The notes beneath the pieces were generated by a model. That model was not told the origin of the DNA and ran no database searches. It saw only the letters and a list, made by a program, of their open reading frames with translations. DNA of 64,000 nucleotides from an uncultured Verrucomicrobiae bacterium (GTDB taxonomy: Bacteria > Verrucomicrobiota > Verrucomicrobiia > Chthoniobacterales > JAATET01), in assembly GCA_963719495.1 (NCBI GenBank), contig CAVRCI010000005.1, positions 160,001-224,000 of the forward strand. The letters are read 5' to 3'. Each line of letters opens with the position of its first letter. The first letter of the stretch is position 1. Below are positions 15,685 to 61,356 of this stretch, in pieces. The translations under genes were made by a program, and so were the position numbers.

Positions 15685-15766
15685 TACCGGCGGAGGGGAT
15701 CGAACCCACACTCCGTAAGGAACACGATTTTGAGTCGCGCGCGTCTGCCAATTCCGCCACGCCGGC
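15685..15766 (-). tRNA. tRNA-Leu(CAA)
   Basis: GCCGGCGTGGCGGAATTGGCAGACGCG...CT-CAA-AA...long variable arm...GGTTCGATCCC; CCA not encoded. Confidence 0.95.
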
Positions 15767-15846: not shown

Positions 15847-15887
15847 TGTCATCCTGAGCGCAGCGAAGGATCTCTGGCATACACTCC
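15847..15887 (+). repeat. TGTCAT-type palindromic repeat (single copy)
   Basis: TGTC-ATCCT-GAGCGCAGCGA-AGGAT-CTCTGGCATACACTCC. Confidence 0.9.
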
Positions 15888-15893
15888 ACCCGC

Positions 15894-15928
15894 CACCATT
15901 CACCATTCACCACTCACCACTCACCATT
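15894..15928 (+). repeat. Heptamer tandem repeat CACCA(T/C)T x5
   Basis: Read directly. Confidence 0.9.
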
Positions 15929-15972: not shown

Positions 15973-16893
15973 ATGGTCGCCTTCGTCATTCGCCGCCTCG
16001 CCGCCCTGGTCGTCGTCCTCTTCCTCGTCGTCTCCGCGACGTTTTTCCTCATCCGGCTCTCCCCCGGTGGTCCGTTCGACTCCGAGCGTAAGATCCCCGA
16101 AGCCATCGAGAAGCAGCTCCTCGCCAAATACAAACTCGACGGCACCCTCTGGCAGCAATACAGCGGCTACCTCGGCGATCTCGTTCGCGGCGACCTCCGG
16201 CTCTCGACCAAATACCGCAGCCGCTCCGTCAACGAGATTCTCGCCCAGACCCTTCCCGTCACGTTCGTCCTCGGCTCCGCGGCCTTCCTGATCGCGTCCA
16301 TCGGCGGCGTCTGGCTCGGAGCGTTCGCCGCCGTCCGCCACCACACCTGGGGCGACGCCGGCTCCATGCTCTTTGCCCTCCTCGCGATCTCGCTCCCCGC
16401 CTTCGTCACCGGCCCGCTCGCCATCCTCGTCTTCGCCCTCGGCCTCGGCTGGTTCCCCGTCGGCGGTTGGGGCGGCCTTTCCCACCTCGTCCTTCCCGCC
16501 ACCATCCTCGCCGCCCCCTACGTCGCCTACATCGCCCGCCTCATGCGCAGCAGTATGCTCGACACCCTGCACCAGGACTTCGTCCGCACCGCTTACGCCA
16601 AAGGCCTCGGAGCCCGCACCGTCCTCTACAAACACGCCCTCCGCGTCGCCATCCTCCCCGTCATCTCCTTTCTCGGCCCCCTCGCCGCCCACCTTCTCAC
16701 CGGCTCCATCGTCGTCGAAACCATCTTCAACATCCCCGGAGCCGGCGGATTTTTCGTGAATTCGATCCAAAACCGAGACGGCTTCCTGCTCGGCGGCGTC
16801 GTCATCGTCTACTGCGTCCTGCTGGTCGTCTTCAACCTCATCGTCGACATTGCCTACACCCTGCTCGACCGGAGGATCGCACTCGATGGCTGA
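15973..16893 (+). CDS. oppB: Oligopeptide ABC transporter permease OppB
   Basis: PGGPF, FVRTAYAKGL EAA loop, GSIVVETIFNIPG. Confidence 0.9.
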   Translation: MVAFVIRRLAALVVVLFLVVSATFFLIRLSPGGPFDSERKIPEAIEKQLLAKYKLDGTLWQQYSGYLGDLVRGDLRLSTKYRSRSVNEILAQTLPVTFVLGSAAFLIASIGGVWLGAFAAVRHHTWGDAGSMLFALLAISLPAFVTGPLAILVFALGLGWFPVGGWGGLSHLVLPATILAAPYVAYIARLMRSSMLDTLHQDFVRTAYAKGLGARTVLYKHALRVAILPVISFLGPLAAHLLTGSIVVETIFNIPGAGGFFVNSIQNRDGFLLGGVVIVYCVLLVVFNLIVDIAYTLLDRRIALDG

Positions 16894-17779
16894 TCCCCGC
16901 GCCTGGCGTCGCCTCCGCTCCAATCCCGTCGCCATCGCGTCCGCCGCGATCCTGACCTTCGTGGTCCTGGCGGCCATCTTCGGCCCGCTCTTCGTCCCGG
17001 AGTCCTACCGCGACCCCAGCACGCTCCAATACGCCGCGCCGTCCTGGGCGCACCCGTTCGGCACCGATCTCAACGGCCGCGACGTTCTCTACCGCGTCCT
17101 CACCGGCACGCGCCTCTCCCTCATCGTCGGCCTCTGCGGAGCCGTCGTCAGTCTCTTCATCGGCACCGCCTACGGCCTGATCGCCGGCTACGTCGGCGGT
17201 CGCGTCGACGCCGCGATGATGCGATTCGTCGACGTCCTGTATTCCATCCCCCGCCTCATCTTCATCCTCATCGCGATCAACGCCTTCAACGGTTACCTCG
17301 AACAATTCGCCGCCGAGCGCGGCTGGGATTGGTTCGTCGGCTACTCCCGCATTTTCATTCTCATCGTCTCCCTTGGCGTCATCGAATGGCTCACCATGGC
17401 CCGCATCGTCCGAGGCCAGGTCCTCGCATTGAAGACCCGCCAATACGTCCTCGCCGCTCGCTCCCTCGGCCAATCCCACTTCGCAATCCTCATCCGCCAC
17501 CTCCTCCCGAACCTCCTGGGAATCATCATCATCTACCTCACCCTCACGATCCCCTCAGTCATCATCGACGAATCCTTCCTCTCCTTCCTGGGTCTGGGAA
17601 TCCAACCCCCCATGGCCAGCCTGGGCTCGCTCCTCGCCGATGGAGCCGGAGCGATCAATCCAGTGAGAAGCTTCTGGTGGATGATCGTCTTCCCCGCCGC
17701 CGCCATGGCCGCCACCCTCCTGGCGCTCAACTTCCTGGGCGACGCCCTGAGAGATGCCCTAGATCCAAGGGGCAAATAA
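16886..17779 (+). CDS. oppC: Oligopeptide ABC transporter permease OppC
   Basis: HPFGTDLNGRD, ESFLSFLGLG, NFLGDALRDALDP. Confidence 0.9.
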   Translation: MADPRAWRRLRSNPVAIASAAILTFVVLAAIFGPLFVPESYRDPSTLQYAAPSWAHPFGTDLNGRDVLYRVLTGTRLSLIVGLCGAVVSLFIGTAYGLIAGYVGGRVDAAMMRFVDVLYSIPRLIFILIAINAFNGYLEQFAAERGWDWFVGYSRIFILIVSLGVIEWLTMARIVRGQVLALKTRQYVLAARSLGQSHFAILIRHLLPNLLGIIIIYLTLTIPSVIIDESFLSFLGLGIQPPMASLGSLLADGAGAINPVRSFWWMIVFPAAAMAATLLALNFLGDALRDALDPRGK

Positions 17780-17812: not shown

Positions 17813-18243
17813 TGTCATTCTGAGCGAAGCGAAGAATCTCTGGCATACACTCCTCACTCCATGCGCGACCACGACTACTGGGTCTACATCCTCACCAACA
17901 AAAGCCAATCGACCCTCTACACCGGCGTAACCAGCCAACTCGGCGTCCGCCTAGCCCAGCACAAAACCGGCGAAAAGCCCGGCTTCACCACCCGCTACCA
18001 CCTAGACCGCCTCGTCTGGTTCGAGCACTTCCGAGACATCCGCGACGCCATCACCTGCGAAAAGCGCCTTAAAGGCTGGCGACGGGAACGAAAGATCGAG
18101 GTGATCGAGCGAACGAACCCAAAGTGGCACGACCTGAGCCGGGACCTCTACGAAGAGCCGCCTGTCCCACCTGCGGAGAACGACGCCGAATATCTGTGGA
18201 CGAGAGTGTAAGCCAGAGATCTTTCGCTTCGCTCAAGATGACA
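17813..18243. mobile_element. Putative repeat-flanked GIY-YIG element (inverted TGTCAT repeats at 17813-17852 and 18204-18243)
   Basis: Inverted repeats abut both ends of the nuclease ORF; mobility is inferred. Confidence 0.6.
17861..18211 (+). CDS. Stand-alone GIY-YIG nuclease family protein
   Basis: YWVYILTN...LYTGVT...R...H...EKRLKGWRR...NPKWHDL. Confidence 0.92.
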   Translation: MRDHDYWVYILTNKSQSTLYTGVTSQLGVRLAQHKTGEKPGFTTRYHLDRLVWFEHFRDIRDAITCEKRLKGWRRERKIEVIERTNPKWHDLSRDLYEEPPVPPAENDAEYLWTRV

Positions 18244-18289: not shown

Positions 18290-18333
18290 TGTCATGCTGA
18301 GCGAAGCGAAGCATCTCTGGCTGACACTCCTCA
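18290..18333 (+). repeat. TGTCAT-type palindromic repeat
   Basis: TGTC-ATGCT-GAGCGAAGCGA-AGCAT-CTCTGGC. Confidence 0.9.
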
Positions 18334-18384: not shown

Positions 18385-19440
18385 CTACCCCCGCATCCCC
18401 GGCAAAATCGCCGGCAAAATCTCATCCAACTCATCCACCACCACAAAATCCCCCGGCTTGCTCATCGTCCGAATCATCGCAATCACCGAATCCCAAAACG
18501 CCACCCCCTCCGCGTTCTTTCGGTTGAAAACCACCACCGGCTTCCCCTCCATCAGCGCGTTCCCCTGATGCTTGAAGATCATCAAAGCCAGCAGCTCCTG
18601 CACCGTCCCCGCCCCGCCCGGGAAGATCACGAACGCGTCCGAATTTTCGATCATCACCTCCATCCGGGTGTAAATGTCCGGCCGCAGCCAGAAGCACGAC
18701 AGCCCGTCCGGAAGCCCTTCCAGCCGAATGATGTGCGGCACGTTCGAACCCGCCGTCCAGCCCCCCGCCTTCACCGCCCCCCGCACCACCGCGCCCATGA
18801 TCCCCGACCGCCCTGCCCCGGAAACGCAACCAATCTTGTTCTCAGCTAAAATCCGACCCAATGCCTCACCGTCGGCCAAATAATTCGGCTCATCCAAGGA
18901 AGCCGAACAGAACACGCAGGCGCTCCCGATGTAGTCCGCGGGAATTGGCGTCTCCATGATCGTCACCTCGGCGTCCTCGAATTTGTGCCGCCCCGCCTCC
19001 GGATGCCCGGTCATCCGAATGAGATCCAGCTGCTCGAGCACCGCTTCCGCCGAGTCGACCATGTGCAGATACAGGTCATACTCCTGCTGCACGGTCCCCA
19101 TCGCTTTCAGATGCGCCAGCACGTCAAAGAGCGAATCCCACGACCCGTCTTCGTTGAGAATCACCGTCGGCTTGCCAGCCAAATTCTGATCCAGCGTTTG
19201 AAACCCCACGAAGATCGAGATCGCCTTGAACATGTCCTCGAGCGTCGCCCCCGGAGTGAACACGAACGCGTCCGACTCGATGATCTTCTTCTCGATGTTC
19301 GCCAGCGATATCCGCTGATCCCCATTCGAATTGTAAATGTCCCACCCCTTCGCAAACAGGAGGTAAAGCAGGCGGGCGCGGGAAGCCCGGTTTGGGTCAT
19401 CCGCACCCGTCACCGTCCCGGAGAGTCTAATTTTTGGCAT
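18385..19440 (-). CDS. LOG/SLOG family protein (nucleotide phosphoribohydrolase-like), duplicated architecture
   Basis: CVFCSAS, SGAGRSGIMGAV, FPGGAGTVQEL; N-terminal half repeats SDAFVF..PG...KPTVILN. Confidence 0.85.
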   Translation of the reverse strand: MPKIRLSGTVTGADDPNRASRARLLYLLFAKGWDIYNSNGDQRISLANIEKKIIESDAFVFTPGATLEDMFKAISIFVGFQTLDQNLAGKPTVILNEDGSWDSLFDVLAHLKAMGTVQQEYDLYLHMVDSAEAVLEQLDLIRMTGHPEAGRHKFEDAEVTIMETPIPADYIGSACVFCSASLDEPNYLADGEALGRILAENKIGCVSGAGRSGIMGAVVRGAVKAGGWTAGSNVPHIIRLEGLPDGLSCFWLRPDIYTRMEVMIENSDAFVIFPGGAGTVQELLALMIFKHQGNALMEGKPVVVFNRKNAEGVAFWDSVIAMIRTMSKPGDFVVVDELDEILPAILPGMRG

Positions 19441-19637: not shown

Positions 19638-21599
<1,962 letters not shown>

Positions 21600-21710
21600 T
21601 TAAGAATTAAGCCATTCCCACGCCACGGCACGCCACCGAAGGGTCCGGAAAAAGCCCGGGGAGCCCATCCCCACTTAAAACTTAATTCTTAAGTCTTAAA
21701 ACTTCACCCG

Positions 21711-21800
21711 TCCTCCCTTCGCCGGCATGACCCGGATCAGGTTCAAAGGGTCGTCGGAAATCAGGTCCCAACCTCTCAGCCACATGCGGCTCCCCCGTTT
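21711..21800 (-). ncRNA. TPP riboswitch
   Basis: Minus strand GGGGAGCC...GGCTGAGA...CCCTTTGAACCTGATCCGGGTCATGCCGGCGAAGGGAG, upstream of thiC. Confidence 0.95.
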
Positions 21801-21806
21801 CCGTTG

Positions 21807-38005: not shown

Positions 38006-38131
38006 TGTCATGTTGAGCAAAGCGAAACATCTCTGACTTCTCACCGCATCTCATCGGCAAACGAAGCGCCCTGCTCCCTGCGTCGGTCGCAAAGCGTGAG
38101 CCAGAGATCCTTCACCCCGTTCAGGATGACA
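38006..38131. repeat. Inverted doublet of TGTCAT-type repeats
   Basis: 38006-38037 forward; 38100-38131 reverse. Confidence 0.9.
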
Positions 38132-45752: not shown

Positions 45753-45859
45753 GCCCCGAACGCTACCACCCCTGCCAACCGCTCGTCCGCATCCAAAAAC
45801 TGTCAGGTCGAGCGAAGCAGAAAATCCGGGCGCAAGCCCGAATCCCCTCACCCCCCAAC

Positions 45860-45965
45860 TGTCATGTTGAGCAAAGCGAAACATCTCTGGCTCCTCACCG
45901 CATCCCGGCGACAGGCGCGGTTAGTAAGTATAAGCCAGAGATGCTTCGCTTCGCTCAGCATGACA
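45860..45965. repeat. Inverted doublet of TGTCAT-type repeats
   Basis: 45860-45891 forward; 45934-45965 reverse. Confidence 0.9.
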
Positions 45966-59954: not shown

Positions 59955-60178
59955 AAGGCACTCCCTCCCCCAACCCCTGTTAGATTGCGGACCACAAACG
60001 CACAGCCGAGTTGAGAAGCCGGCAATGAACGAGCGGCGCCAGCCGTCCCCATCTGGCATTTGGAGGGCGAGGCTCTGCCGAGCCGTGGCTTCCTCGATGG
60101 ATTCTGCGCCACAGGAGGCGATGGTATCGCCAACGACGCGAAACATCTCTGGCTTCTCACCGAACCCAACCCGACCAC

Positions 60179-61316: not shown

Positions 61317-61356
61317 TGTCATGCTGAGCAAAGCGAAGCATCTCTGGCTTCTCACC
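61317..61356 (+). repeat. TGTCAT-type palindromic repeat (a partial copy also at 60138-60161)
   Basis: TGTC-ATGCT-GAGCAAAGCGA-AGCAT-CTCTGGCTTCTCAC. Confidence 0.9.

Follow-up and report, generated by a model that had tools for sequence, protein, structure and literature searches.

Small single-domain GIY-YIG nucleases paired with hairpin repeats have been described as the Ssn family. According to the available portion of Chenal et al. 2025 (PMC11893778), SsnA of Neisseria meningitidis, a 94-aa GIY-YIG protein (cd10448), binds the NTS hairpin on one strand and in ssDNA only, cuts a few bases upstream, requires Y6, Y17, and E64 for cleavage, and does not bind RNA. Binding and cleavage of ssDNA hairpins were demonstrated there for four Ssn homologues, 42% of Ssn homologues have SRM repeats on both sides, and the NTS-ssnA-NTS layout was likened, as a hypothesis, to IS200/IS605 and REP-associated transposases. 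The sole in vivo role tested for SsnA, within the same portion, is reduced integration of NTS-bearing transforming DNA, and the 29 genomes that define SRM include no Verrucomicrobiota. The nuclease–hairpin pairing itself is already published in that paper, as are the layout and the RAYT/REP analogy, so the association that a preliminary description of our locus had proposed is not new. In literature mostly outside subscription journals, we found no paper testing the mobility of Ssn cassettes.

CGTC REPs were defined by Di Nocera et al. 2013 (PMC3733652), who noted a TGTC variant and, in the available portion of their text, no transposase gene flanked by these repeats. For the hairpin itself, the available part of Kimoto and Hirao 2026 (PMC13037366) describes the GCGAAGC core as a very stable DNA mini-hairpin that forms with GNA triloops only, and a related tetraloop form whose RNA counterpart is far less stable. 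Here we compare with these systems a nuclease gene and its repeats in a 64 kb window (the whole stretch of DNA analysed) of a 4.54 Mb Verrucomicrobiota genome, G000.

A nuclease gene between two outward-facing repeats

The locus and its neighbours comprise the following features.

16850..17779, + strand: oppC-type ABC permease gene, left neighbour, with orthologues in 5/5 congeners
17813..17852, + strand: left repeat, 40 nt, with TGTC tag, 21-nt hairpin, and CTCTGG tail; head faces away from the gene
17861..18211, + strand: ssn-like gene for a 116-aa single-domain GIY-YIG nuclease (Pfam, protein model, and residues)
18204..18243, - strand: right repeat, inverted, head at 18243; overlaps the TAA stop of the gene (18209-18211)
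18290..18329, + strand: third repeat copy, just outside the cassette, within DNA absent from congeners at the same site
18385..19440, - strand: SLOG/LOG-family gene, right neighbour, which adjoins oppC directly in G001, G003, and G004

The whole cassette spans 431 bp and places the nuclease gene between two outward-facing TGTC repeats. The left repeat begins 48 nt and ends 8 nt upstream of the ATG (at 17852, where 9 nt had been given in the preliminary description), and the inverted copy does overlap the stop codon, as reported. Beyond the TAA the frame stays open up to a TGA within the head of the right repeat, where many homologues end; the in-frame TAA ends the window ORF nine codons before that TGA.

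The 116-aa ORF (17861-18211, +) was recognized correctly as GIY-YIG: PF01541 is its sole Pfam match (E 2.5e-14), and residues Y9, Y20, R30, H34, and E67 are all intact. Its predicted structure (pLDDT 85) consists of one GIY-YIG domain and a loose C-terminal tail of low confidence from about residue 99. The best PDB fold matches of the model are 1zg2 and then Slx1, with no close solved relative in the PDB, and an NCBIfam search gave no family above cut-off. No other small GIY-YIG gene was found in the genome; the one further GIY-YIG match, in a 515-aa frame, is likely UvrC.

Judged from these sequence features, the window nuclease is very probably an Ssn family member. The Y9/Y20/E67 spacing equals that of SsnA Y6/Y17/E64, matched by spacing and not by alignment, and Maricaulis alexandrii, SsnA/cd10448-positive in Supplementary Data 4 of PMC11893778, encodes four small GIY-YIG proteins that are 41-53% identical to the window protein, an indirect comparison. 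Like the Ssn proteins in the available account, it is a small (<150 aa) single-domain GIY-YIG protein with GTC-tagged hairpins on both sides of its gene; unlike Ssn as published there, proteins of the window type have a tail of 15-25 residues that often reads into the right repeat.

The system also resembles REPtrons (a RAYT gene with GTAG REPs and REPIN dimers) in having a gene between inverted hairpins, dispersed inverted dimers of ~100 bp, and an ssDNA hairpin as likely substrate, but it has no HUH/Y1 domain and its tag is TGTC, not GTAG. We rejected a RAYT identity for it, with no Y1 domain at the locus, no GTAG tag, and no Y1 match within 2.5 kb of a repeat.

Elsewhere in the window, a tRNA-Leu(CAA) gene lies at 15685-15766 (-), 80 bp ahead of the repeat copy at 15847, and a TPP riboswitch lies at 21697-21806 (-), upstream of a 645-aa ORF (19638-21575) that presumably is thiC.

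The repeat contains a covarying mini-hairpin

The preliminary description had pictured a strictly compensatory 5-bp stem around an 11-nt loop. That loop does not stand, as its interior is made up of two adjacent G·A pairs and, inside these, a 2-bp stem that covaries and closes a GNA triloop (a GCGAAGC mini-hairpin); the left repeat at 17813..17852, for example, has 5 bp, tandem G·A, 2 bp, and a GAA loop. Strict compensation applies within the window, whereas genome-wide the outer stem is perfect in 152/200 copies. In DNA, G·A pairs in tandem form a stable motif.

Covariation was assessed in 165 copies gathered by their ends alone, against shuffles that ignore kinship among copies. Watson-Crick pairing is found at outer pair 7-23 in 151 copies (at most 83 in shuffles) and at outer pair 8-22 in 153 (at most 99). 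The inner pair 12-18 is Watson-Crick in 161 and alternates between G-C and A-T (at most 132 in shuffles), and pair 13-17 is paired in 163 (at most 158). Between the outer and inner stems, G·A occurs in 157 and A·G in 159 of these copies. In the 198 copies retained genome-wide, the stem base is A-T in 188 and T-A in 184 (AT at positions 1-2). Their triloops are GAA in 133, AAA in 26, GGA in 23, and GCA in 5, loops that the collecting pattern favours; GNA loops occur in 161/198, and the copies with an AAA loop (26/198) are expected not to form the mini-hairpin.

ViennaRNA predicts 5 bp, a 2x2 loop, 2 bp, and a triloop, and folding as RNA is favourable too. Strand asymmetry of folding was not reproduced by ViennaRNA, with near-equal DNA energies for the two strands (-1.9 vs -1.7 kcal/mol), so that this asymmetry rests on the literature. 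Rfam, sigma-70, and terminator scans gave no match covering the repeats.

The core of most copies, GC-GNA-GC, is like the d(GCGNAGC) mini-hairpin, and the loop abundance GAA > GGA > GCA parallels the stability order reported for such mini-hairpins (available part of PMC13037366). Unlike d(GCGNAGC) itself, it here caps a longer stem via tandem G·A, and some copies have AC/GT or AT/AT as inner stem or AAA as loop.

The window repeat is probably a TGTC-tagged CGTC-type REP. Members of that superfamily have an unpaired CGTC, TGTC, or CCTC tag and a stem of 8-9 bp around a 4-5 nt loop. With CGTC REPs, as far as the available portion of PMC3733652 describes them, it shares the TGTC tag variant, AT at stem positions 1-2, a short unpaired tail, and inverted dimers, and it matches their family 2 in size (a 21-nt palindrome of 8 + 5 + 8) if the two G·A pairs are counted. 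It differs from them in that 2/8 stem positions are G·A, in its CTCTG tail (mostly CCA in CGTC REPs), and in its accompanying nuclease gene, since CGTC REPs were reported there without a dedicated enzyme.

By the same sequence comparison, the repeat is SRM-like and falls outside the strict published SRM pattern. It shares with the Ssn/SRM system, in the available portion of PMC11893778, AT at the stem base then C after the hairpin, and hundreds of dispersed copies; unlike SRM/NTS, with an 8-bp Watson-Crick stem and a 4-nt loop, it carries tandem G·A and a GNA mini-hairpin cap. The published SRM pattern matched 0/200 copies at 0 or 1 substitution and 84 at 2, whereas 24/24 control NTS expansions matched; it also misses plain CGTC hairpins at two homologue loci, L006 and L043.

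Repeat copies in the window and the genome

The nine full copies listed in the preliminary description are all present in the window, each with a perfect 5-bp outer stem, although the positions given there for reverse copies are their low coordinates. Their heads lie at 15847+, 17813+, 18243-, 18290+, 38006+, 38131-, 45860+, 45965-, and 61317+. What had been taken as a partial copy at 60138 is indeed a repeat, and is a degenerate full-length one with its head at 60122. Searching with one repeat pattern gave 6 matches in the window vs 0 in 100 shuffles. Outside the cassette region, the window holds:

15847..15886, + strand: single repeat copy, with a decayed copy at the matching site in congener G001
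38006..38131, no single strand: inverted dimer of 126 bp whose heads point outward, a candidate for a non-autonomous unit; G001 has an empty site here
45860..45965, no single strand: inverted dimer, 106 bp, accompanied by a further, degenerate copy at 45801; again an empty site in G001
60122..60161, + strand: degenerate full-length copy, 5' half decayed, 4 substitutions
61317..61356, + strand: single repeat copy (pattern match)

A run of CACCATT-type heptamers at 15890-15925 directly follows the first of these copies, and a similar run is found on contig C13 near 630360.

Across the genome, 200 pattern matches were found at ≤3 substitutions, two of which (C2:527935 and C14:45825) were dropped as chance-like, so that the genome-wide count proposed in the preliminary description comes to 198 copies in 4.5 Mb. 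At ≤1 mismatch there are 179 matches vs 0 for the reversed pattern. The tag is TGTC in 150 and CGTC in 9 of 159 copies, the only two tags that the pattern admitted. Inverted pairs with heads outward number 32 and are 93-226 bp long with diverse spacers; 23/32 measure 93-104 bp, mostly ~96 bp.

Several features of individual copies were also observed. BIME-like tandem arrays of repeat-bearing units occur at C2:177442-178998, C11:54950-55656, and C8:131819-132207, with periods of 278, 204, and 105 bp and 5.6, 3.5, and 3.7 copies, respectively, that are 91-93% alike; the C11 array site measures 1421 bp here vs 449 bp in G001. Three identical copies (C2:782341, C3:48065, and C7:160540) have an AT/AT inner stem, a GCA loop, and identical flanks, and so likely either lie within some larger element that is itself repeated or result from recent copying as a single unit. 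A subgroup with a replaced 5' stem arm (a broken outer stem) and its own shared leader nevertheless recurs at many sites (C1:135925, C2:792886, C5:51172, C7:95743, C7:150405, C8:115149, C9:40001, and C11:55670). In most copies of this genome the ~12 nt before TGTC are C/A-rich (CCAAACC-like), which is not seen in the cassette flanks of other genomes; such a leader may here be duplicated together with the repeat.

The cassette is conserved across Verrucomicrobiota

The homologue search gave 489 candidates, 383 of them at E 1e-20 or better. In line with the expectation that homologues should be flanked by cognate repeats, 13/30 homologue loci, all from Verrucomicrobiota and with 50-73% identity, likewise have this repeat, at 42-45 nt upstream of the ATG, above the background of the hairpin scanner (25 matches in 800 kb, or 0.03 per kb). 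An inverted right copy follows at 408-414 bp in 12 of these 13 loci and a decayed one in the 13th (L028), giving a conserved cassette length of 408-431 bp. In 37/119 homologous proteins the ORF reads through the right repeat to the head TGA, so that the repeat encodes a C-terminal motif. Y20, R30, and H34 are invariant in 30 aligned proteins, and Y9 and E67 are conserved in at least 90%.

Counting that of the window, 13 complete cassettes occupy eight gene contexts in Verrucomicrobiota, three of them with a short flank on one side, and similarity among independent sites ends at the TGTC heads. Two genomes carry two cassettes each, and frameshifted or stopped gene copies exist among the homologues. 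One context is common to five records/species with flank identities of 73-86%; because this site is kept in five species, it reflects long residence and not rapid hopping. The protein tree places the window protein as sister to, not nested in, 13 other cassette proteins (support 91/89), so no direction of horizontal acquisition can be read from it.

Among the other 17, more distant, loci, six have a GTC-tagged hairpin near the gene, several with G·A after the fifth pair, and the scanner found none near the gene in 11/17. Five homologues from Planctomycetota, Armatimonadota, Acidobacteriota, and Nitrospirota (L036, L040, L042, L004, and L050) have hairpins with G·A after the fifth pair, but with differing inner stems and loops; the G·A hairpin type is broad, as it is seen in distant homologues of four further phyla.

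Empty sites and copy-number contrast

The nuclease gene was not found in five congeners, two of which are only 79% and 88% complete, or in 16 family members; for G001-G005 this was confirmed by family or profile search. The gap between oppC and the SLOG gene is 82-88 bp in G001, G003, and G004 vs ~614 bp here, with no repeat remnant between the two genes in these three congeners. The empty-site check suggested in the preliminary description therefore had a positive outcome: the cassette site is empty in 3/3 syntenic congeners (G002 and G005 are not syntenic there). At ≤1 mismatch, the five congeners hold 3, 1, 8, 0, and 1 repeats vs 179 in G000.

Other repeat sites behave similarly. Mapping drew on 800 kb of G001 plus 35 kb of G003, and 18/146 G000 repeat sites were mappable on both sides, all 18 between conserved gene blocks. 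At 17/18 the congener has no repeat and the G000 gap is longer; the remaining one (window 15847) holds a decayed copy in the congener. Of the 13 congener copies, 5 occupy a site where G000 also has a copy or a remnant and 8 do not, so the repeat family is older than these species and turning over, and empty sites may be losses.

Exact insertion junctions were not obtained from the congeners, whose intergenic DNA is too diverged to align. Target-site duplication was detected (score ≥30) at 1/144 repeat sites vs 3/600 random and 0/600 swapped controls, and no significant direct repeats surround the 13 cassettes, a 9-of-10 match beside the window cassette being within the score range of the others. 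The one flanking duplication, of 69 bp, surrounds a single repeat at C13:117121, a site of 307 bp vs 44 bp in G001.

In an order-wide survey of 201 genomes, whose tallies include one unpublished genome (G158), the homologue is present in 14/16 genomes with ≥5 exact copies, 4/13 with 1-4, and 17/172 with none. Repeat abundance thus follows gene presence, as had been anticipated, only in part: 15/16 genomes with ≥5 copies belong to one family, within which the comparison is 13/15 vs 8/15 among kin that are not independent, and two genomes, G044 (39 exact copies, 98% complete) and G205 (9 exact copies), have no close homologue even by profile search. Both have distant GIY-YIG genes only, without flanking repeats. 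G044, from the same order, has 50 copies at one mismatch, mostly inverted dimers; its orphan repeats were either left after gene loss or accompany a gene in bases absent from the assembly. No clear relation was seen between copy number and closeness to the window protein (rho 0.40, p 0.08, n 20).

A possible route of repeat spread

The sequences show the cassette and its constant layout in homologues, the covariation within the hairpin, the empty sites, and the copy-number contrast, and a role of the nuclease in spreading the repeat appears likely because the empty sites and copy numbers fit it. The probable explanation, in our view, is an Ssn-family enzyme that cuts the folded ssDNA repeat and promotes its spread via host repair. 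Once single-stranded, at a replication fork or in recombination, the TGTC strand would fold, with a 5-bp stem followed by two sheared G·A pairs and capped by a GNA mini-hairpin, and the enzyme would bind this strand and hydrolyse it a few bases 5' of the tag, as SsnA does; by analogy, we consider these steps highly probable.

The later steps seem reasonably probable. As the heads of the cassette and the ~96-bp inverted dimers face outward, cuts at the two heads would mark the ends of these units, on opposite strands. GIY-YIG enzymes hydrolyse DNA with no covalent intermediate and cannot rejoin the freed ends. The enzyme would therefore start the event by hydrolysis and would not join strands as RAYT can, and spread would need host repair synthesis, which from the freed 3'-OH would copy or capture units at new intergenic sites without target duplication. 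This route fits both the absence of target duplication and the fact that the intergenic gaps are longer and ragged. The RAYT role assigned to the GIY-YIG protein in the preliminary description accordingly gains from the conserved nuclease–repeat pairing, from the empty sites and copy numbers, and from there being no RAYT-like gene linked to the repeat, but it is unproven for a hydrolytic enzyme and in view of two genomes with many copies and no gene.

Three other explanations were weighed against Ssn-promoted spread. The enzyme might be a domesticated host tool that cuts ssDNA hairpins to modulate recombination or to keep out incoming ssDNA, much as SsnA acts in Neisseria transformation; the repeats would then spread through gene conversion and through duplication in place, and the cassette itself would move rarely and passively. 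The only in vivo role tested for SsnA in the available text (PMC11893778), lower integration of NTS-bearing transforming DNA, agrees with this, as do the single-copy gene, the site held in five species, and the local duplication of repeat-bearing units seen in three tandem arrays. Yet the gene is absent from all 16 family members searched, and its eight contexts, its presence as two cassettes in each of two genomes, and its frameshifted or stopped copies look more like a selfish element; a host tool is unlikely.

Spread of the repeat in trans by another enzyme, either Y1/RAYT-like HUH or a host factor, with the GIY-YIG gene as a captured passenger, is less probable still. It could draw on the 12 Y1_Tnp-family matches in the genome and on the repeats without gene in G044 and G205, but none of these matches is at the cassette locus, the nearest repeat to any of them is 2,566 bp away, and the repeat beside a RAYT elsewhere that would have counted against the preliminary reading was not seen, all 12 being ≥2.5 kb from a repeat. 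Nor, in the available portion of Di Nocera 2013 (PMC3733652), is any transposase gene flanked by CGTC repeats, and the fixed spacing and ORF read-through into the right repeat (37/119) indicate long co-inheritance. It is scarcely credible that the repeats act at the RNA level, as terminators or stabilisers, and stand beside the gene by chance. Every one of the 18 mapped sites is flanked on both sides by conserved gene blocks and RNA folding is favourable, as such elements would have it, but no terminator-like or Rfam match covers the repeats, SsnA is without RNA binding in the available text (PMC11893778), and this explanation is already largely refuted by the geometry conserved in 13 homologue loci against 0.03 matches per kb.

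Implications

The cassette is real and conserved, and is likely a variant of the published Ssn system. To the nuclease–hairpin pairing already in PMC11893778, it adds a mini-hairpin repeat type missed by the published pattern, together with a contrast in occupied sites and copy numbers that speaks for mobility: 179 copies where the gene is present vs 0-8 in five congeners without it, and the empty syntenic site, support, without proving, Ssn-driven movement and repeat creation.

More tentatively, and with the balance leaning against it, the ~410-bp TGTC-ssn-GACA unit could be an autonomous mobile element, among the smallest known, in which a hydrolytic GIY-YIG enzyme would mobilise itself and ~96-bp non-autonomous dimers via mini-hairpin-capped ends, without transposase chemistry or target duplication. 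It would then be the missing mobiliser of CGTC REPs, in a mini-hairpin subtype invisible to the published motif.

Because this repeat type escapes the published search pattern, Ssn–repeat associations, and with them ssDNA cleavage specificities, are likely under-counted. An Ssn enzyme that recognizes a mini-hairpin-capped target would, if true, represent a new specificity for the ssDNA tool set.
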